Made by a program: the position numbers and the translations under genes. Positions 2,364 to 55,779 of a stretch of 64,000 nt of DNA are shown in pieces. Source of the stretch: an uncultured Gaiellaceae bacterium (GTDB taxonomy: Bacteria; Actinomycetota; Thermoleophilia; Gaiellales; Gaiellaceae); assembly GCA_963831285.1 (NCBI GenBank), contig CAWHPO010000003.1, positions 91,401 to 155,400 of the forward strand, read 5' to 3'. The notes beneath the pieces were generated by a model that was not told the DNA's origin, did no database searches, and saw only the letters and a program-made list of their open reading frames with translations. The stretch's first letter is position 1. The number at the start of each line of letters is the position of its first letter.

Positions 2364-3446
2364 TCGCGAACCCAGCGCTCGCGGTTCTCGTCGATCGTCG
2401 CGGGAGACAGCTCGAGTGGATGCTCCGGGACGATCGCGAAGCGAGCGAACTCGGGCGGCAGGGGGACGTCACGGCGAGCCGGGAAGACGAACATCTGCAG
2501 CGGGATGTCCCGCTGGAAGCGCGCGCGACAGCAGGAAGTCGATCAGCTCGCGCGCTCCCTTCTCGTTCCGGGCGCCCCGGAGCACGCCGGCGAGCTCGAT
2601 CTGCCTGAAGCAGCTGTCGGCGACGACGCCCGTCGGCGCCGTCTTCGGTCGGGGGTCCCGGAAGATGACCTCGGCCGGCGGGCTCGAGGCATACGAGACG
2701 ACGATCGGACGCGTGCCGTGGCTGCCTGCGGCCCCCGAGAAGCGCGCCGTGTACGCGTCCTCCCACCCGTCCACGACGAGCACGCCGTTCGCCCGGAGCT
2801 TGCGCCAGAAGTCCTGCCAGCCGTCTCCGAACCGTGCGATGGTCGCGAGCATGAACGCGAGGCCCGGCGTCGACGTGGCCGGGTTCTCGACGACGAGCTC
2901 GTTGCGGTAGCGGGGCCGCGTGAGGTCGGCGAGGGAGCGGGGCGGGGGAACGCCCTCCTCCGCGAACCAACCCCTGTCGACGTTGAGGCACACCTCCCCG
3001 TGGTCGATCGGCGTCACGCGGTGCTTCGGGTCGAGCTCGAGCTCCGGGTCGATGGCGTCGAGCGCGGGCGGCGTGTACGGCTCGAAGACGTCCCCCGCGA
3101 GCGTGCGCTCGACGAGGTTGTTGTCGACGCCGAAGAGGACGTCGCCCTCGGGATTGCCCGCGGTCAGGAGCGCCCGGGTGACGACCTCCCCCGCGTCTCC
3201 GCCCTTGAGGATGCGGAGCTTCAGCCCGGTCTTCTGCTCGAACGCGCGCTTCACCGAGGGCGAGATCGCGAACGCGTCGTGCGTGACGAGGACGACGTCC
3301 TTCGGCTGGCCGCCTCCGCCGCAGCCTGCGACCGCGAGGACCGCGACGAGCGCCGCGAGACCGCCGCTACTCCCCTTGCAACAACTTGTTACAAGGTGCC
3401 GACTCGCCGCGAGGGCACGCCCACAGCACTTGTAACAACTTGTCAC
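2339..3446 (-). CDS. thiB: Thiamine-type ABC substrate-binding lipoprotein with an apparent +1 frameshift near 2519-2527
   Basis: ORF 2469..3446 carries the lipobox LAVAGC and a TbpA/FbpA-like body. After ELIDFLLSRA the conserved C-terminus FQRDIPLQMFVFPARRDVPLPPEFARFAIVPEHPLELSPATIDENRERWVREWTDIVVR* continues in another frame to TGA at 2339..2341. Total length is 3n+1. The only in-frame start, GTG at 3446, lies inside a palindromic repeat. Confidence 0.75.
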
Positions 3447-3450
3447 TTGG
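3375..3450 (-). repeat. AT-rich double-palindrome element, copy A
   Basis: CTTGCAACAACTTGTTACAAG (3375-3395), 33 nt GC-rich spacer, CTTGTAACAACTTGTCACTTGG (3429-3450). Palindrome centres are 54 bp apart. The element overlaps the TPK stop and the thiB start. Confidence 0.8.
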
Positions 3451-4090
3451 CGTCTCCCGGCCGGATCGCGAGGAGGACGCCCCGCGCGACCTGCACGGTG
3501 GCGCCCTCGGCGGCGAACACGTTCGAGACGCCGCGCGTCGAGCCGGGCTCGAGCGTCTCGCCGCGGAGCGGGTAGACGAGGCCCTCGGTCGTGACGCCTT
3601 CCGCAGGCCCGTTCACCGCGAGCAGCGAGACGAGCTCGCCCGCCTCGCCCACCAGCGCACGCGTCCCGCGGACGATCTGGACGTGCGCCGCCCCGACGAG
3701 CGCGTCGATCTGCGCACCCGCGTAGCGGTCGGAGGCGAGGGCGAGAAGGCCCGCGAGCTCGTGGTCGAGGCGGCCGCCCCGAGGGGCGAGGACGAGGATC
3801 CGCGAGGGGCTCAGCCTCGAGGCCGCGTCGAGCGCGAGCTCGAGGTCGGTCGCGTCCTTGTCGGCGGGATGGCGCTCGATGCGCGTCCCGGCGGCCTCGG
3901 CGCGCGCGACCGCCTCGGGCGAGGCCGAGTCGAAGTCGCCGACGGCGAGCGCGACCTCGAGGCCGAGCGCCTGCGCCTGCTCGAGCCCGTCGTCGGCGGC
4001 GATCACGACCGCGCCGTGCGGGACGGCCTCGGCAGCGCGCGGCGAGAGCGGGCCACCCCCTGCGACAACGACCACCAGTTCCTCCGACAC
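3443..4090 (-). CDS. Thiamine diphosphokinase (TPK/ThiN family)
   Basis: ORF 3443..4108 has a GDFDS catalytic motif and a TPK-like length. I prefer GTG at 4090, 8 nt after GGAGGAAGG. The ATG at 4108 lies inside the conserved riboswitch segment AAUGCCAGCG. Confidence 0.75.
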   Translation of the reverse strand: MSEELVVVVAGGGPLSPRAAEAVPHGAVVIAADDGLEQAQALGLEVALAVGDFDSASPEAVARAEAAGTRIERHPADKDATDLELALDAASRLSPSRILVLAPRGGRLDHELAGLLALASDRYAGAQIDALVGAAHVQIVRGTRALVGEAGELVSLLAVNGPAEGVTTEGLVYPLRGETLEPGSTRGVSNVFAAEGATVQVARGVLLAIRPGDAK

Positions 4091-4183
4091 GCCTTCCTCC
4101 GCTGGCATTACCCAGATCAGGTTCTGCGGGTCGGCGGCGCGGTAGCCGCCCTCTCAGCCCGGTTGCCCCGAGCTCCCCGTCAC
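4091..4183 (-). promoter_or_regulatory. TPP (THI-box) riboswitch
   Basis: The minus strand reads GGGGAGCUCGGGGCAACCGGGCUGAGAGGGCGGCUACCGCGCCGCCGACCCGCAGAACCUGAUCUGGGUAAUGCCAGCGGAGGAAGG. It contains the diagnostic CUGAGA and ACCUGAUCUGGGUAAUGCCAGCG motifs. The 3' end abuts the Shine-Dalgarno sequence of the TPK gene. Confidence 0.85.
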
Positions 4184-4230
4184 GTCCTCATGATGCTAGC
4201 GCTAGTGCTCCCGGACGCCCGCGGTGTGGC

Positions 4231-12604: not shown

Positions 12605-13865
12605 GTGGCGCGGCGCTACTTCGGAACGGACGGCGTGCGCGGGATCGCGGGCGTCGACCTCACGCCCGACCTCGTCGAGCGCATCGGGAAGGCCGCGACG
12701 CTGTGGGCCGGACGGCGGACGCGTGCTCGTCGGTCGCGACACGCGCGCCTCGGGCCCCGAGCTCGAGCAGGCCGCAGCTCGCGGGATCGCCTCGGCCGGA
12801 GGCGTGGCGGTTCTCGGCGGCGTCCTCCCGACACCCGCGATCGCGTTGCTCTCGGACGAGCTCGGCGTCGTCATCTCCGCCTCGCACAACCCGCCCGAGT
12901 ACAACGGCGTCAAGCTCTTTCGGGGCGGCGGCAAGCTCGTCGACGAGCAGGAGGAGGCGATCGAGGCGCTGTTCGAGGCGCCCCCGACGGGGCGTGGCTC
13001 GATCGAGCGCGTGGACGATCTCGGCGAGCGCTACGCCGCCCATCTCCGCGACCGCTGCGGAACCGACCTGACCGGGCTTCGAGTCGGCGTCGACTGCGCG
13101 AACGGAGCGATGACCGCTTTCGCACCGCCGATCTTCGAGGAGCTCGGCGCGGAGGTGCACGCGATCTGCGTCGAGCCCGACGGCTCGAACATCAACGTCG
13201 GCTGCGGAGCGACCGACCTCTCGCGCTTGCAGCAACTCGTCACGAGCGCCTCGCTCGATCTCGGGGTGGCCTTCGACGGCGACGGCGACCGCATGCTGGC
13301 GGTCGACGAGCGCGGCGAGCCGGTCGACGGGGATCAGATCCTCGCCGTTCTCGCGCTTCATCTCGACGTCGAGCTCGTGGCCGTCACCGTCATGACGAAC
13401 CTCGGGTTCCACCGGCTGATGGGAGAGCACGGAGTGAAGGTGCTGACGACTCCCGTCGGCGACCGCTACGTGCTCGAGGCGCTCGGGCGCGAGGGTGGCG
13501 CCCTCGGCGGCGAGCAGTCGGGACACCTGATCTGGCTCGACGGTCACGTCACCGGAGACGGCCTCGCCGCCGCCCTGCTGCTGTGCGCCGCGGTTCGCGG
13601 TCGCACGCTCAGCGACGCGGCCGCCGTGATGCCCCGTTACCCGCAGGTGAAGCGCAATGTCTCGGTGTCCCGCCCGAGCGTCCCGCAGTCCGTGGTGGAC
13701 GAGGCCGAGCGCCTCAACGAGGTGCTCGGCGGCGGCGGACGGGTGCTCGTGCGCGCGTCAGGAACGGAACCGGTCGTTCGCGTCCTGGCCGAGGCGGAAA
13801 CTGTCGGAGATGCCGAAAAGCTGTGTGCTAGCATCGCCGCGCTCGTTGAACGAGAGCTCGGCTGA
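12605..13865 (+). CDS. glmM: Phosphoglucosamine mutase with an apparent frameshift near 12706-12712
   Basis: The GTG at 12605 gives VARRYFGTDGVRGIAGVDLTPDLVERIGKAATLWAG. The reading then switches frame to RVLVGRDTRASG...ISASHNPPEYNGVKLF...GDGDR...GGEQSGH. Total length is 3n+1. Confidence 0.9.
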
Positions 13866-23958: not shown

Positions 23959-25524
23959 TCACGCTACACCCCGCTCGAGCGGCTCGAACAGCTCGGGCCA
24001 GTACGTCATCGCGTTCCGCACGGGGAACGGCGCGGCCTGGCCCAGCCCGCAGATGGAGGTCTTCTCCATCGCGAGCAGCCATTCGTCGACCTTCTCCCTC
24101 GTCATCGCCGCCTCGCCGCGCTCGAGCTCCTCGGCGAGGTGGTGGAGCGCGCGGTTCCCGATCCGGCACGGCGTGCACTTCTGGCACGACTCCTCCGCGA
24201 AGAAGCGCATCGTCTCCGAGAGCAGTCGCAGCGGCGAGTAGGAGGCGGGAAACACCTGGACCGCGGCCGAGCCGGGCCCGGCCTCGTACTCGCGGAGGCC
24301 CTCGCGCGTGAGCGGCGCGTCGAGCGCCGCGGGCGGAAGGATCCCGCTCGCCGCGCCGCCGGGAACGACCGCTCCGATCTCGTCGGAGAAGCCTCCGGCG
24401 TACTCGTCGACGAGCTCGCGGGTCGTCACCCCGTTCGGGGCCTCGTAGCAGCCCGGCTCGCCGACCGCGCCTGTGACCGACCACAGGCGCGTGCCCTTCG
24501 CGCCGCGCGTCCCGAGGCCGGCCCACCACGCCCCTCCGTTGCGCACGATCGCGGGGAGGTGTGCGAGCGTCTCGACGTTCTGGATCAGCGTGGGCCGCCC
24601 GAGGTAGCCGAACTGGCTCGGGAACGGCGGCTTCAGCCGCGGCATCGCGCGGCGGCCTTCCATCGACTCGAGCATCGCCGTCTCCTCGCCGGCGATGTAC
24701 GCGCCGGCTCCGATCACGAGCTCGAGCGTGAGGCCGTCGAGCAGGCCGGCTGCCCGGAACTCCTCGAGCGCCCGCTCGAGCCTGGCGCGAGCCGTCGCGT
24801 ACTCCTCGCGGAGATAGACGTACCCCTCGGACGCTCCGAGCGAGCGCATCGCGAGCACGGTCGCCTCGAGCATGAGGTGCGGCCGCAGCTCCATGACGTA
24901 GCGGTCCTTGATCGTCCCCGGCTCGCCCTCGTCCGCGTTCACGACGACGTAGCGCGGCTCGGGCTCCTTCGAGACCGCGTCCCACTTCGTGCCCGTGGGG
25001 AAGCCCGCGCCGCCGTAGCCGGTGAGGCCGGACGCCTGCAGCTCTTCCACGATCCGCTCGAGCGAGGGTAGGTCGCGCAGGAGCTGGAGGCCGCCGCGCG
25101 CGGTGTAGTCCGCGAGTGTCGCGTCGCCCCTTCCCAGTCCGACCGCAGGGCCGTCCTTCGTCGAGTAAGTCACCGCCGGGACAATCTCGTCGCCGCGCGT
25201 CAGCACGGGCGCGAGGTCGCAGTGGCCGAGGCAGGCGACCTCGATCGCTCCCGGGTTCGCGTCCAGCAGCTCGCGCGCCCCGAAGCAGTCGCAGACCGGG
25301 CCCGTGCACACCCGGACGGCGTCCGTCCGCACCTGCAGGAACGAGTAGAACGAGACGACCTCGTGCACCTCGCCCCGCCGGACGTTCATGTGGTCGGCGA
25401 GGGCGTCCGAGAGCTCCATCGTGATCGGGCCGACCTCGCGACGGATGCGGCCGAGGTTGTCGAGGAGCCGCGTCCGCTCAACAGGAAGCTCCGGAAGGAG
25501 CGTTGCGAGCCGGAGCGCGTCCAC
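23959..25524 (-). CDS. NuoE-NuoF fusion-type NAD(H)-binding diaphorase subunit of formate dehydrogenase
   Basis: The N-terminal half is NuoE-like (C..C...C..C). The second half is NuoF-like with GYGGAGFPTG, NADEGEPG and ESCQKCTPCR motifs. Confidence 0.85.
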   Translation of the reverse strand: MDALRLATLLPELPVERTRLLDNLGRIRREVGPITMELSDALADHMNVRRGEVHEVVSFYSFLQVRTDAVRVCTGPVCDCFGARELLDANPGAIEVACLGHCDLAPVLTRGDEIVPAVTYSTKDGPAVGLGRGDATLADYTARGGLQLLRDLPSLERIVEELQASGLTGYGGAGFPTGTKWDAVSKEPEPRYVVVNADEGEPGTIKDRYVMELRPHLMLEATVLAMRSLGASEGYVYLREEYATARARLERALEEFRAAGLLDGLTLELVIGAGAYIAGEETAMLESMEGRRAMPRLKPPFPSQFGYLGRPTLIQNVETLAHLPAIVRNGGAWWAGLGTRGAKGTRLWSVTGAVGEPGCYEAPNGVTTRELVDEYAGGFSDEIGAVVPGGAASGILPPAALDAPLTREGLREYEAGPGSAAVQVFPASYSPLRLLSETMRFFAEESCQKCTPCRIGNRALHHLAEELERGEAAMTREKVDEWLLAMEKTSICGLGQAAPFPVRNAMTYWPELFEPLERGVA

Positions 25525-25570: not shown

Positions 25571-25646
25571 CAAGTTACAAGTTGTTACAAGCGCGTCTCT
25601 CACCTGACAGGGTTGAGACAAGCCCAAGTGACAAGTTGTCACTTGG
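25571..25646 (-). repeat. AT-rich double-palindrome element, copy B
   Basis: CAAGTTACAAGTTGTTACAAG (25571-25591), 32 nt spacer, CCAAGTGACAAGTTGTCACTTGG (25624-25646, a perfect 23 bp palindrome). Centres are 54 bp apart. Confidence 0.8.
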
Positions 25647-25658
25647 GCGTCGCTGCGG

Positions 25659-26051
25659 CTAGTCGCCTGACGGCGGTCTGCGCAGCGCCTTCGTCCGGGC
25701 GCGGCGGCGCTTCTCCTCGAGCCGCCGTTCGCGCGCCTGCGCACCCGGTCGCGTCGGCACGCGACGGCGCGGCACGGCGAGCGCCTCGCGCAGCTTCTCG
25801 ACGAGACGCTCGACCGCGAGCTCGCGGTTGCGGCTCTGGCTGCGCTCGTCCTGCGCGACGGCGCGAACGACGTCCCCCGCCCGCGCGACGACGCGCCGCT
25901 TCTGGGTGTCGGTCAGCGCCGACGACGCCCGGACGTCGAACGACGCCTCGACCCGCGTCGAGGACTTCTGCGCGTGCTGTCCGCCCGGCCCGCTCGAGCG
26001 CGAGACGCGGAGCGCGATCTCCGAGACGGGGAGGAGGACGGAGCGGGTCAC
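25659..26051 (-). CDS. arfB: Alternative ribosome-rescue factor / peptidyl-tRNA hydrolase (GGQ domain)
   Basis: RSSGPGGQHAQKSSTRVE and a basic C-terminal tail. 130 aa. Confidence 0.8.
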   Translation of the reverse strand: MTRSVLLPVSEIALRVSRSSGPGGQHAQKSSTRVEASFDVRASSALTDTQKRRVVARAGDVVRAVAQDERSQSRNRELAVERLVEKLREALAVPRRRVPTRPGAQARERRLEEKRRRARTKALRRPPSGD

Positions 26052-51106: not shown

Positions 51107-51421
51107 GTGGCTCGCTGTGGTCACTGCGAGGCGGAGGTCGCGGGGGAGTTCCGCTACTGCCCCTGGTGCGCCACGCCGATGCGAAGCAAGCTCGTGGAGT
51201 TCTTCCGCGGAGCCGATGCGGACGAGCACCGAGCGCTGCGCGTCTCGCGGTACATCCCGGAGCGCCGCGTCCGATTCAGCGTCTGGGACGAGAGCGGCAC
51301 CGCCCGCGCCGCCGTCTCCCTGGACGATGACGAGGCCGCGCGGCTGGCCGACTTCGTGGCGCGTCCGCGAACGCGCAGACCGACGCTGCTCGACGAGCTA
51401 CGCGCGCTCGTTCGCCGCTAG
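51107..51421 (+). CDS. Zinc-ribbon hypothetical protein
   Basis: MARCGHCEAEVAGEFRYCPWCATPM... Confidence 0.5.
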   Translation: MARCGHCEAEVAGEFRYCPWCATPMRSKLVEFFRGADADEHRALRVSRYIPERRVRFSVWDESGTARAAVSLDDDEAARLADFVARPRTRRPTLLDELRALVRR

Positions 51422-52368
51422 CTTCCGGCGAGCTCGAGCTCGCGGCGCAGCTCCACGGGCAGGCGGAAGGTGACGTCCTCCTCGACGATGCGGTATGGCT
51501 CGATGTCGGTCACGCCGCGAGCGCGGAACCAGTCGCAGACGCGCCCGACGAGCTTCTCCGGTGCGGACGCGCCCGAGGTGATCCCGACCGTGCGTGCGTC
51601 GCCGAGCCACGCCTCGTCGATCTCGGACTCGTCGTCGATCAGGTAGGCCCGCGTGCCGGCGGCACGGGCCGTCTCGACGAGCCGGTTCGAGTTCGACGAG
51701 TTGCGCGAGCCGATGACGAGGAGCAGGTCGATCTCGGGAAGCATCTCCTTGACTGCCCACTGCCGGTTCGAGGTCGCGTAGCAGATGTCTTCCTTGCGCG
51801 GCGCGCGGATCTGCGGGAAGCGGCGCCGAAGCGCGGTGATGATCTCGCCCGTCTCGTCCACCGACAGGGTCGTCTGGGTCACGTACGCGAGCTTCGAGTC
51901 GGGCGGGAGCTCCAGCGCCTCGACCTCCTCGACCGTCTGGACGAGCAGCGTCGAGTCCGGCGCCTCGCCCATCGTCCCGACGACCTCCTCGTGCCCCTCG
52001 TGTCCGATGAGGACGATCGTGTAGCCCTCGTCCGCGTAGCGGCGGGCCTGGACGTGCACCTTCGTGACGAGCGGGCAGACGGCGTCGATCACGTTGTGTC
52101 CGAGCTGCGACGAGTTCGCGTAGACCGCGGGCGCCACCCCATGCGCGGAGTAGACGACGGTCGCGCCCTCGGGCACCTCGGTCTCCTCCTCGACGAAGAT
52201 CGCTCCGCGCGCCTCGAGATCGCGCACGACGTGGATGTTGTGGACGATCTGCTTGCGCACGTAGACGGGCGCGCCGTAGTGCTCGAGCGCCCGCTCGACC
52301 GTCTCGACCGCGCGCTCGACGCCGGCGCAGTACCCGCGCGGCGACGCGAGGAGAACTCGCTCGACCAT
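51418..52368 (-). CDS. ispH: 4-hydroxy-3-methylbut-2-enyl diphosphate reductase
   Basis: SPRGYCAGVERAV, HNIHVV, CPLVTKVH and ICYATSNRQ motifs. Confidence 0.95.
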   Translation of the reverse strand: MVERVLLASPRGYCAGVERAVETVERALEHYGAPVYVRKQIVHNIHVVRDLEARGAIFVEEETEVPEGATVVYSAHGVAPAVYANSSQLGHNVIDAVCPLVTKVHVQARRYADEGYTIVLIGHEGHEEVVGTMGEAPDSTLLVQTVEEVEALELPPDSKLAYVTQTTLSVDETGEIITALRRRFPQIRAPRKEDICYATSNRQWAVKEMLPEIDLLLVIGSRNSSNSNRLVETARAAGTRAYLIDDESEIDEAWLGDARTVGITSGASAPEKLVGRVCDWFRARGVTDIEPYRIVEEDVTFRLPVELRRELELAGS

Positions 52369-52389: not shown

Positions 52390-52468
52390 GCTTGCAACAA
52401 CTTGTTACAAGCACACGACGGCAGCGCGAGAACCGGCGCACGGCTGCTTGCGACAAGTTGTTGCAAGC
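52390..52468 (-). repeat. AT-rich double-palindrome element, copy C
   Basis: CTTGCAACAACTTGTTACAAG (52391-52411), 35 nt spacer, CTTGCGACAAGTTGTTGCAAG (52447-52467). Centres are 56 bp apart. The 24 nt arms GCTTGCAACAACTTGTTACAAGCA and TGCTTGCGACAAGTTGTTGCAAGC are mutual inverted repeats (22 of 24). Confidence 0.8.
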
Positions 52469-52472
52469 GTTG

Positions 52473-53420
52473 TCAGCGTGCGGACTGGGCGACGAGGATG
52501 CCTGCCATGACGATCGCGCCGCCGACGAGCTGCCACGCCCCGAACGTCTGGCCGAGCCACGCCCACGCGACGACGGTCGCGACGACGGGCTCGAACGTCG
52601 AGACGATCGAGGCGCGCGTCGCGCTGATGTGACGGAGGGCGCCCGTCAGCAGCAAGAACGGCGCGATCGTTCCGACCACGACCACGAAGGCGACGAGGGA
52701 CCACACGGGAGCGGTATGGCTCGAGAGGTTGCCCTGGAGTGAGACGTGGTCGCCGAGAACCGACCACGGAAAGTCCCAGAGCGGCTGGACCACGGCCCAC
52801 AGGATGGCGGCGAAGAGGAACCCGTAGAAGGTCAGCGACGCGGCATCCCGGTGCTGCCGCTCCCGCTCCGCCATCAGCAGGTACGCGGTCAGGACGAGCG
52901 CGCTCCCGAACGCCGCGGTGACGCCCACCGTGCTGTACGCGATCCCCGACCAGATCTCGACCACGAGCGCGAGCCCGGTGAGGCAGAGCCCGACGGCGAC
53001 CCAGATCAGGCGTCGCACGTGCTCCCGATAGACGAAACGCGCGAACAGCGCGACGAAGAGCGGCGCCGTGAACACGATCAGCAGCACGACGCCGATGGGC
53101 GCATTCTCGATCGCCACCAGGTAGAGCCACTGCTGGAGCGCCACACCGACGAGACCGAACGCAACGAGGAAGAGCAGCTCGCGCCGCCCGACGCGAAGCC
53201 TCGCCGGCGCGAGAACGGCGAGGAAGGCGAGGAACAGCAGAGCCGCGCACGTATGCCGGATCTGGGCGAGCTGGAGCACCGTGAGGCCGGAGTCGAGCGT
53301 GACTTTCATGACGCTTCCGTTGACCGCGAAGAGGGTCGCCGCGATCGCCACCATCGCGTAGCCGAGGCGCGACTTGTCGTCGGGGCGCCCCTCCGGGAGC
53401 AGCGTCGGGGCGTCGACCAT
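52473..53420 (-). CDS. EamA/DMT family transporter
   Basis: 315 aa with 10 hydrophobic helices in a duplicated EamA arrangement. Confidence 0.8.
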   Translation of the reverse strand: MVDAPTLLPEGRPDDKSRLGYAMVAIAATLFAVNGSVMKVTLDSGLTVLQLAQIRHTCAALLFLAFLAVLAPARLRVGRRELLFLVAFGLVGVALQQWLYLVAIENAPIGVVLLIVFTAPLFVALFARFVYREHVRRLIWVAVGLCLTGLALVVEIWSGIAYSTVGVTAAFGSALVLTAYLLMAERERQHRDAASLTFYGFLFAAILWAVVQPLWDFPWSVLGDHVSLQGNLSSHTAPVWSLVAFVVVVGTIAPFLLLTGALRHISATRASIVSTFEPVVATVVAWAWLGQTFGAWQLVGGAIVMAGILVAQSAR

Positions 53421-53457: not shown

Positions 53458-53531
53458 CGGGGTGTAGCTCAGCCTGGTAGAGCGCTCGCTTTGGGAGCGA
53501 GAGGCCGGCGGTTCGAATCCGCCCACCCCGA
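53458..53531 (+). tRNA. tRNA-Pro (anticodon TGG)
   Basis: CGGGGTG TAGCTCAGCCTGGTAGAGC G CTCGC TTTGGGA GCGAG ... GGTTCGAATCC ... CACCCCG A. No CCA is encoded. Confidence 0.9.
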
Positions 53532-54801: not shown

Positions 54802-54874
54802 AGCGGGCGACCGGGTTCGAACCGGTGACATCCAGCTTGGAAGGCTGGCGCTCTACCAACTGAGCTACGCCCGC
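54802..54874 (-). tRNA. tRNA-Gly (anticodon TCC)
   Basis: GCGGGCG TAGCTCAGTTGGTAGAGC G CCAGC CTTCCAA GCTGG ATGTC ACCGG TTCGAAC CCGGT CGCCCGC T. Confidence 0.9.
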
Positions 54875-55706: not shown

Positions 55707-55779
55707 GCGCCCGTAGCTCAGTGGACAGAGCGGCGGACTTCTAATCCGCGGGTCGGAGGTTCGAATCCTCCCGGGCGCA
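55707..55779 (+). tRNA. tRNA-Arg (anticodon TCT)
   Basis: GCGCCCG TAGCTCAGTGGACAGAGC G GCGGA CTTCTAA TCCGC GGGTC GGAGG TTCGAAT CCTCC CGGGCGC A. Confidence 0.9.

Follow-up and report, generated by a model that had tools for sequence, protein, structure and literature searches.

Paired AT-rich palindromes in a Gaiellaceae genome as probable members of a lineage-restricted family of miniature insertion elements

What are pairs of short AT-rich palindromes, each pair enclosing a spacer of its own, doing at three places in GC-rich actinobacterial DNA? The DNA in question is a 64-kb stretch (64,000 nucleotides, called the window throughout) of contig CAWHPO010000003.1 from an uncultured Gaiellaceae bacterium, and the three units in it have one layout, namely a 21-bp arm (CWWGTNACAASTTGTNACWWG), a GC-rich spacer of 33-35 bp and a second arm. 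A first-pass annotation had offered three models for them: a paired operator, a long AU-rich RNA stem and a miniature element of the REP, BIME or Correia kind. Repetitive extragenic palindromes (REPs) are mobilised or maintained by RAYT tyrosine transposases (Y1/HUH), and the Rickettsia palindromic elements (RPEs) are palindromic in-frame insertions in coding genes, which are translated as surface loops and kept at orthologous positions. We propose, with a probability of roughly 0.7, that the three loci belong, as copies, to a family of miniature insertion elements which is restricted to one lineage, the Gaiellaceae and Thermoleophilia, and resembles REP dimers and RPEs. This assignment is based upon the restriction to one lineage, insertion polymorphism, the tolerant sites that are occupied, in-frame copies in protein linkers, stop codons supplied by the arms, dimers with free spacers, and singletons that are remnants. 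The family is previously undescribed, a literature search having found no published description in Gaiella or Thermoleophilia, and is closest in kind to REP dimers or REPINs and to RPEs.

Anatomy and distribution of the paired arms

Coordinates given without a locus number are positions within the window. Re-reading of the window sequence confirmed the paired palindromes at 3375-3449 (copy A), 25571-25645 (copy B) and 52391-52467 (copy C), together with the annotated core-to-core spacings of 54, 54 and 56 bp. The core ACAASTTGT occurs six times in the window, always in these three pairs, where shuffled sequence leads one to expect 0.04 occurrences and none of 100 shuffles reached six. The arms are about 38% GC in DNA of 67-74% GC. 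A common polarity had also been claimed for the three copies, which the asymmetric arm positions contradict, since they give copy A one orientation, copy B the opposite one and copy C a mixed one. A scan of the window with the 21-mer consensus at up to three mismatches returned the six arms and one weak, unpaired site at 13226-13246. This last sequence (CTTGCAGCAACTCGTCACGAG, three mismatches) lies inside a GlmM-like coding sequence; it was rejected as a member of the family, since no partner arm lies 54-56 bp from it, and chance is its most likely origin.

The pair pattern, with core spacings of 45-61 bp allowed, was then used to scan 185,579 species, each represented by a single genome. The 104 stretches returned come nearly all from metagenome-assembled genomes (MAGs) named as Gaiellaceae, Thermoleophilia or 'uncultured Actinomycetes', with a GC content of 66-73%. 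All relatives are MAGs, and those found through IspH and PolA (below) are likewise named Gaiellaceae, which assigns the window to that group. In total, 88 distinct high-GC copies were counted in 27 assemblies, and clustering by flanking proteins groups them into about 49 sites; individual MAGs hold seven to nine strict pairs, one 485-kb contig holds five, and the window three. The scan revealed a dispersed, lineage-restricted family beyond the three window copies. In about 0.9 Mb of high-GC sequence around the copies, GTNAC-N2-S-N2-GTNAC is centred on AASTT in 168 of 171 occurrences, from which we conclude that the motif exists essentially only as the paired element, and only two unpaired cores were present in about 0.8 Mb of loci sequence. 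No locus with three or more arms is found among the genome-scan matches, and a metagenome scan for three-core arrays gave, among the matches listed, unrelated low-GC repeats.

Low-GC look-alikes among the scan matches came from one Treponema MAG and from some Bacteroidota and Ignavibacteria (in two groups of loci: L005, L015, L058, L062, L067 and L079; L011, L035, L041, L046, L054 and L064). In the low-GC genomes of Bacteroidota, Ignavibacteria and Kapaibacteria, GCAACAAGTTGTTGC palindromes form pairs 54-69 bp apart, and the Treponema MAG contains tandem arrays of GTAACAAGTTGTTAC. Both repeats share the arm core, yet possibly belong to unrelated families. The IMG/VR collection of viral contigs was scanned with the pair pattern, giving no matches, and with the single arm, giving four matches in 48%-GC contigs, which is about the level of chance. 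Three 48%-GC viral contigs share an arm-like 21-mer (CAAGTAACAAGTTGTCACATG) at the same locus (L105:680-700, L107:8849-8869 and L108:5077-5097), where it adjoins an apparent lipoprotein gene start. No exact match to the central 24 nt of any of the three window spacers was found in viral contigs. A viral origin was rejected, given that the pair is absent from IMG/VR, that the single-arm matches are at chance level and that the spacer centres are unmatched.

Over the 88 high-GC copies the arm consensus is C-W-W-G-T-N-A-C-A-A-S-T-T-G-T-N-A-C-W-W-G, in which a pair of GTNAC boxes, separated by one helical turn, flanks an invariant ACAA-S-TTGT. Positions that had been left free in the search pattern are also conserved (C in 84, G in 90 and T in 82 of 91). 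The arms start with CWWG, GTAG being found in only two, and in the outer GTNAC box only about half of them have A ahead of AC. Of 94 pairs, 84 have their cores 54-56 bp apart (54 bp in 35 copies, 55 bp in 27 and 56 bp in 22), and the whole unit measures 72-78 bp. The arms carry polarity, the fully polar form consisting of two 10-mers wwGTNACAAG; within pairs, 61 are direct (head-to-tail) and 25 inverted, or 31 and 15 once orthologues are removed. The free N positions of the two arms are uncorrelated within a pair, and no extension of the stem into the flanks was detected.

The spacers had been described as unrelated between copies A, B and C, and this proved true of the family as a whole, with similarity confined to orthologous loci of close MAGs. 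A family-wide comparison gave no residual spacer consensus and no spacer shared by two non-orthologous copies. The constraint on arms and spacing around a free spacer, which had been suggested from the three loci, therefore extends across the family: arm sequence, relative orientation and distance are constrained, and base pairing and spacer content are not.

Insertion sites and the fate of copies

Copy C lies between eamA and ispH. Seven relatives of this region were retrieved via IspH alone, so that arms played no part in the selection. In six of the seven, the eamA-ispH gap is 11-18 nt long and contains no arm, and at the same point the window and the orthologous locus L029 have about 90 extra nt, directly past TGAC. 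Six of seven relatives thus have an empty orthologous site, which shows that the unit is inserted DNA and that the site can be dispensed with; because the empty sites hold no single arm, it was the whole unit that arrived. In the seventh relative (L109:1940-2060) a different palindromic insert, GATCGGAATCCGC...GCGGATTCCGATC, is present at the position of copy C, and hairpin elements may have landed repeatedly at this short intergenic point. Some public IspH models (P0221, P0126 and P0160) are 442-541 amino acids long and represent EamA-IspH fusions or N-extended IspH; at L115, the locus of P0221 and the one record inspected, the eamA-ispH gap is short and without an arm.

Comparison of copy C in the window and in L029 shows what happens after insertion. 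The arms are identical at 39 of 42 positions (93%), the spacers at 11 of 35, which equals random expectation, and the 4-fold degenerate sites of the two loci at 0.56-0.57, for which the compositional baseline is about 0.45. Orthologues obtained with the arm-pattern scan are biased to conserved arms, a bias that the PolA and IspH samples correct. The arms are kept after insertion and the interior drifts to randomness; single and decayed arms also exist.

Gene contexts were assigned with our own codon-bias caller, which was trained on these loci and validated only on six Pfam-checked window genes. By this means 40 copies were assigned to tandem gaps and 24 to convergent ones, with few in divergent gaps; deduplicated, the figures are 25.3 tandem, 9.5 convergent, 7.1 intragenic and 3.0 divergent. 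Divergent gaps thus hold 3 of 38 copies, compared with 35% of the intergenic length in the same loci. In tandem contexts the median distance is 5 nt from the upstream stop versus 52 nt to the next start, and in 15 of the 40 cases the stop codon lies inside the arm, as the arm's own TNA or TAG. In convergent contexts both stops are within 25 nt in 20 of 24. Copies survive where they are tolerated: just past stops, between convergent genes and in-frame in protein linkers.

At six loci (L023, L085, L087, L043, L024 and L098) the next start codon is located exactly 5 nt past an arm ending in TGTAACTTG. This puts TAACTT at -12 to -7 of the start codon, a -10-like geometry. The genes which follow such arms are real (GGT, RibF, DNA ligase, M20 peptidase and an MBL-fold protein), and the copies at these six loci may donate the -10 box to leaderless mRNAs.

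Tabulation of the downstream genes disclosed no coherent regulon. The neighbours have unrelated housekeeping functions, and neighbour families seen more than once represent orthologous sites in several MAGs. Neither an integrase nor a cas gene was seen among the genes neighbouring any copy. Proteins with two Pfam HNH_repeat domains (homing-endonuclease-associated repeat) are encoded just downstream at L006:652-1425, L084:583-1140 and L101:4706-5479; they were rejected as a partner of the element, since they adjoin one orthologous site only (three MAGs) and no other.

In-frame copies inside genes are only 72, 75 or 78 nt long. Their hosts are the genes for PolA (five MAGs), a glycosyltransferase (three MAGs), an E2 acyltransferase (two MAGs, in the lipoyl-linker), a DnaE-type polymerase, HemC, ThiD and a membrane protein. 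Both arms translate as (P/A)S(D/N/Y)(K/N)L(S/L)(Q/L)(G/A), and in HemC, ThiD and DnaE the inserts form extra, unaligned loops between domains when set beside solved homologues. To follow one such insertion we used 120 PolA relatives, all at least 84% identical, a sample which is unbiased with respect to the arm pattern. About 40 have the arm-spacer-arm form and about 80 a single arm or remnant, and the two forms differ by 18-19 residues, which corresponds to one arm plus one spacer. Among the pairs, both arms are intact in 14 of 40, one in 12 and neither in 14; among the single arms, 6 of 79 are intact. Variation in the arm residues of PolA is confined to degenerate DNA positions (D/N/Y, S/L and K/N), and the spacer peptides diverge freely. 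Since the residue changes fall exactly on those positions and the spacer peptide is free, the constraint acts on DNA and not on protein. A single-arm variant, CTTGTGACACCGTGTCACTTG, in which AA/TT has been altered symmetrically to AC/GT, occurs at L110:844-864. Many PolA relatives have the decayed peptide that matches it, PSDTVSQG, which is also present at a second place in DnaE of L032, at residues ~299-306.

Weighing the explanations

In kind, the family is like REP, BIME and REPIN sequences in that a 21-bp near-palindrome is dispersed, dimeric and fixed in spacing, lies downstream of open reading frames (ORFs), supplies stop codons from its arms, has in-frame copies and leaves singleton remnants. 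REPs are palindromic units of 20-40 bp situated between unidirectional or convergent ORFs, downstream of coding regions; REP families form dimers 20-100 bp apart, some with spacers alike in length but differing in sequence; their termini supply stop codons, their singletons are dimer remnants, and their intragenic copies encode 20-30 amino acids, many of them in replication and repair genes (PMC3733652). With the RPEs the family has in common in-frame palindromic insertions that are read as extra protein loops, and orthologous retention. With MITEs (miniature transposable elements bounded by inverted repeats), for example Correia, it shares small size, a non-autonomous, inserted and dispersed nature, mutually inverted ends, sites at gene ends and a possible effect on transcripts. 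The third of the originally proposed models, a miniature element of the REP, BIME or Correia type, is consequently the one that we retain, on the strength of the dispersed family, the stop-adjoining sites, the in-frame copies and the clean empty sites.

In other respects the family stands apart from each of these. Its arms, which are AT-rich, form near-perfect palindromes around a single central base, whereas REPs are GC-rich stem-loops. RPEs are conserved over their full 100-150 bp and reside in a reduced intracellular alphaproteobacterium, whereas conservation is limited here to the two 21-bp ends, and there is no sequence relationship. MITEs share internal sequence, target-site duplications and a parent insertion sequence (IS) with the same ends, none of which was found in the 8-kb loci around the pairs. 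Conserved internal sequence had been named beforehand as the mark of an ordinary MITE, and as the interiors are unique, the element is not one.

Several observations weigh against the REP-dimer/RPE-like assignment. The GTAG/CGTC tags of the known REP superfamilies are absent from the arms. Copies probably number about ten to a few tens per genome, compared with hundreds for REPs. Head-to-tail pairs predominate here, an arrangement which is rare among known REP dimers (PMC3733652). A tblastn search with E. coli RayT gave no match in the approximately 0.9 Mb of loci sequence, where no parent element was seen either. There was no excess of flanking direct repeats (k = 2-6, any boundary offset) that would indicate target-site duplication, although old duplications could have decayed. 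As no two non-orthologous copies share a spacer, there is no sign of recent whole-unit copy-and-paste, unlike in a typical active MITE; taken together, the lack of shared spacers and of detectable target duplications implies that the sampled insertions are all old, or that the mechanism does not copy the interior. That arms persist when synonymous divergence is close to saturation calls for selection or some means of maintenance, and in the unbiased PolA sample arms are often decayed.

Conserved arms, fixed spacing, a preferred orientation and the lack of pairing covariation (below) together suggest that the arms are putative recognition sites of a sequence-specific DNA-binding protein which would contact both at a fixed geometry. 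By analogy with RAYT and REP, this protein would most plausibly be the enzyme, a transposase or recombinase, by which the family is moved or maintained. The pair would then be the retained unit, since the protein would bind both arms, and transcript effects such as 3'-end hairpins and the -10-like TAACTT before leaderless genes would be by-products.

A different bearer of the same geometry would be a host dimeric protein which bridges the two arms, five helical turns apart, and regulates, organises or insulates, so that the pair is an operator or nucleoid site needed by the host. The spacing of 54-56 bp around a free spacer sequence, the conservation of arms while neutral sites approach saturation, and the better retention of pairs than of single arms in PolA are all consistent with such a site, and recognition of duplex DNA is plausible because there is no base-pair covariation. 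We nevertheless consider it unlikely. The copies are found past stops, between convergent genes and inside coding sequences rather than in promoter regions; their neighbours are unrelated in function, recurrent families being merely orthologous sites; six of seven relatives lack the eamA-ispH copy, which is therefore dispensable and acquired by insertion; and arms decay in many lineages. Position, neighbours and empty sites speak against the operator of a regulon, and what stands of the annotated paired-operator model are the arms as putative protein sites at fixed spacing. The TNAC-N5-GTNA core may resemble the Streptomyces BldD box, and a likeness to the 434 operator is also conceivable.

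More doubtful still is the long AU-rich RNA stem, in which the arms would pair around a GC-rich loop as a terminator, 3'-end stabiliser or RNase III site. Transcribed REPs are similarly placed at the 3' ends of genes, and the predicted folds of the three window copies are more stable than shuffles on the transcribed strand (z -3.1 to -4.2), a trivial consequence of each arm being palindromic. No covariation is seen at the positions that vary (W, N and the S in the centre), pairing in the arm1:arm2 helix falling below shuffle level (80.7% versus 83.2 +/- 1.2; 495 of 500 shuffles at or above the observed value) and that in local hairpins likewise (78.6% versus 81.8 in shuffles). The palindromy of the arms is limited to invariant positions. 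Complementarity of the outer N, which was considered as a covariation signal, is explained by one lineage that uses A/T throughout. Head-to-tail arms place A.A and G.G mismatches in the arm1:arm2 stem. The spacers are unstructured, with a mean folding z of -0.15 compared with 0.04 for control 34-mers, each relative to its own shuffles, and a spacer hairpin as a terminator stem was rejected, as its folding is no better than that of shuffles. None of the three window copies has a U-tract, consensus promoter or terminator, and Rfam at gathering and permissive thresholds returned only noise at the elements. Copies inside coding sequences and a strict spacing of 54-56 bp, which is unexpected for an apical loop, also argue against an RNA element. 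With no covariation, unstructured spacers and no U-tract, this second model of the first-pass annotation was abandoned.

We regard as equally doubtful that the pairs are more than decaying selfish DNA and serve as substrates of an unrecognised site-specific DNA system of the Thermoleophilia, either a measuring integrase or recombinase which builds arm-spacer-arm units out of single arms, in the manner of CRISPR adaptation or attC recombination, or a domesticated transposase in lasting partnership with its sites. If true, this would explain why the arms and the spacing of 54-56 bp are kept to synonymous saturation, even in polA, with unique spacers. The integron recombination site attC, too, has conserved ends, a variable centre and a place directly past co-directional stops, its asymmetry coming from unpaired bases and its RYYYAAC/GTTRRRY boxes containing an invariant AAC/GTT (PMC5027507). 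The ends, the centre and the placement right after stop codons are alike in our elements, but AAC/GTT is not invariant here because the N of GTNAC varies, and the copies are solitary among syntenic housekeeping genes, with neither cassette arrays nor an association with IntI. A CRISPR array was rejected, no genome locus having more than two arms and no adjoining cas gene being seen.

Somewhat less probable again is repeat-spacer-repeat growth, in which a measuring integrase or recombinase, much as in CRISPR adaptation or attC recombination, inserts 33-35 bp at a single arm and duplicates that arm, or recombines the folded unit: the exact difference of one arm plus one spacer between the PolA forms, the unique and narrowly sized spacers (33-35 nt), the mostly direct arms and the attC-like plan would suit it, but a third of the pairs have inverted arms, whose N positions, as in the other pairs, vary independently of each other, no genome locus has three or more arms, the empty eamA-ispH sites without a single arm mean that the whole unit arrived, the triplets that define attC vary, no integrase or cas gene was seen beside any copy, and viral contigs contain no exact match to the middle 24 nt of any window spacer.

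Gene context in the window and wider meaning

The flanking genes are those named in the first-pass annotation, according to Pfam, and all are on the minus strand (Table 1).

Table 1. Positions of the three paired elements, their parts and the adjoining genes in the window
Feature	Position	Strand	Remarks
Copy A, arm distal to TPK	3375-3395		CTTGCAACAACTTGTTACAAG
Copy A, spacer	3396-3428		33 nt, GC-rich, unique
Copy A, arm adjoining TPK	3429-3449		Contains TPK stop TGA (3445-3443, minus), overlapping GTG start 3446-3444
Copy B, arm distal to ArfB-like gene	25571-25591		46 nt upstream of NuoF-like start 25524
Copy B, spacer	25592-25624		33 nt, unique
Copy B, arm	25625-25645		13 nt past RF-1/ArfB-like stop; perfect palindrome
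Copy C, arm	52391-52411		22 nt upstream of ispH ATG (52368)
Copy C, spacer	52412-52446		35 nt; not related to the spacer of the L029 orthologue, also 35 nt
Copy C, arm	52447-52467		5 nt past eamA stop (52473-52475)
Solute-binding lipoprotein ORF	2469-3446	-	Pfam; start at GTG 3446 would make the first 25 codons the element
Thiamin pyrophosphokinase (TPK) gene	3443-4108	-	Pfam
Thiamin pyrophosphate (TPP) riboswitch	4076-4189	-	Rfam RF00059, 60.5 bits; heads the TPK/binding-protein operon containing copy A
NuoF-like flavoprotein gene	23959-25524	-	Pfam; downstream of copy B
RF-1-domain (ArfB-like) gene	25659-26051	-	Pfam; upstream of copy B
ispH (LytB)	51418-52368	-	Pfam; downstream of copy C
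EamA transporter gene	52473-53420	-	Pfam; upstream of copy C

Each copy had been said to fill a gap between genes, a description that fails for copy A, where the TPK stop and the start of the solute-binding protein overlap within an arm as GTGA (3443-3446). No other in-frame start precedes the lipobox LAVAGC in the binding-protein ORF. Because the overlap holds the sole available in-frame start, the 75-nt element of copy A is probably translated and would make up residues 1-25 of the lipoprotein precursor. Copy C has three tRNA genes less than 3.5 kb away, at 53458-53531 (+), 54802-54874 (-) and 55707-55779 (+).

For genome annotation the elements are of practical concern, since stop codons, in one case probably a start codon, and possibly -10 boxes are contributed by their arms, and gene callers may mis-annotate nearby, perhaps giving fused EamA-IspH or N-extended IspH models. 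The 25-amino acid inserts, for their part, mark tolerant protein loops. With two 21-bp ends and their spacing kept and the interior free, the family constitutes a clean natural experiment, which points to a sequence-specific protein. It adds a repeat family to an almost unstudied and mostly uncultured actinobacterial class, to which in-frame insertion of the REP/RPE-like kind into essential replication genes (polA and dnaE) is thereby extended.

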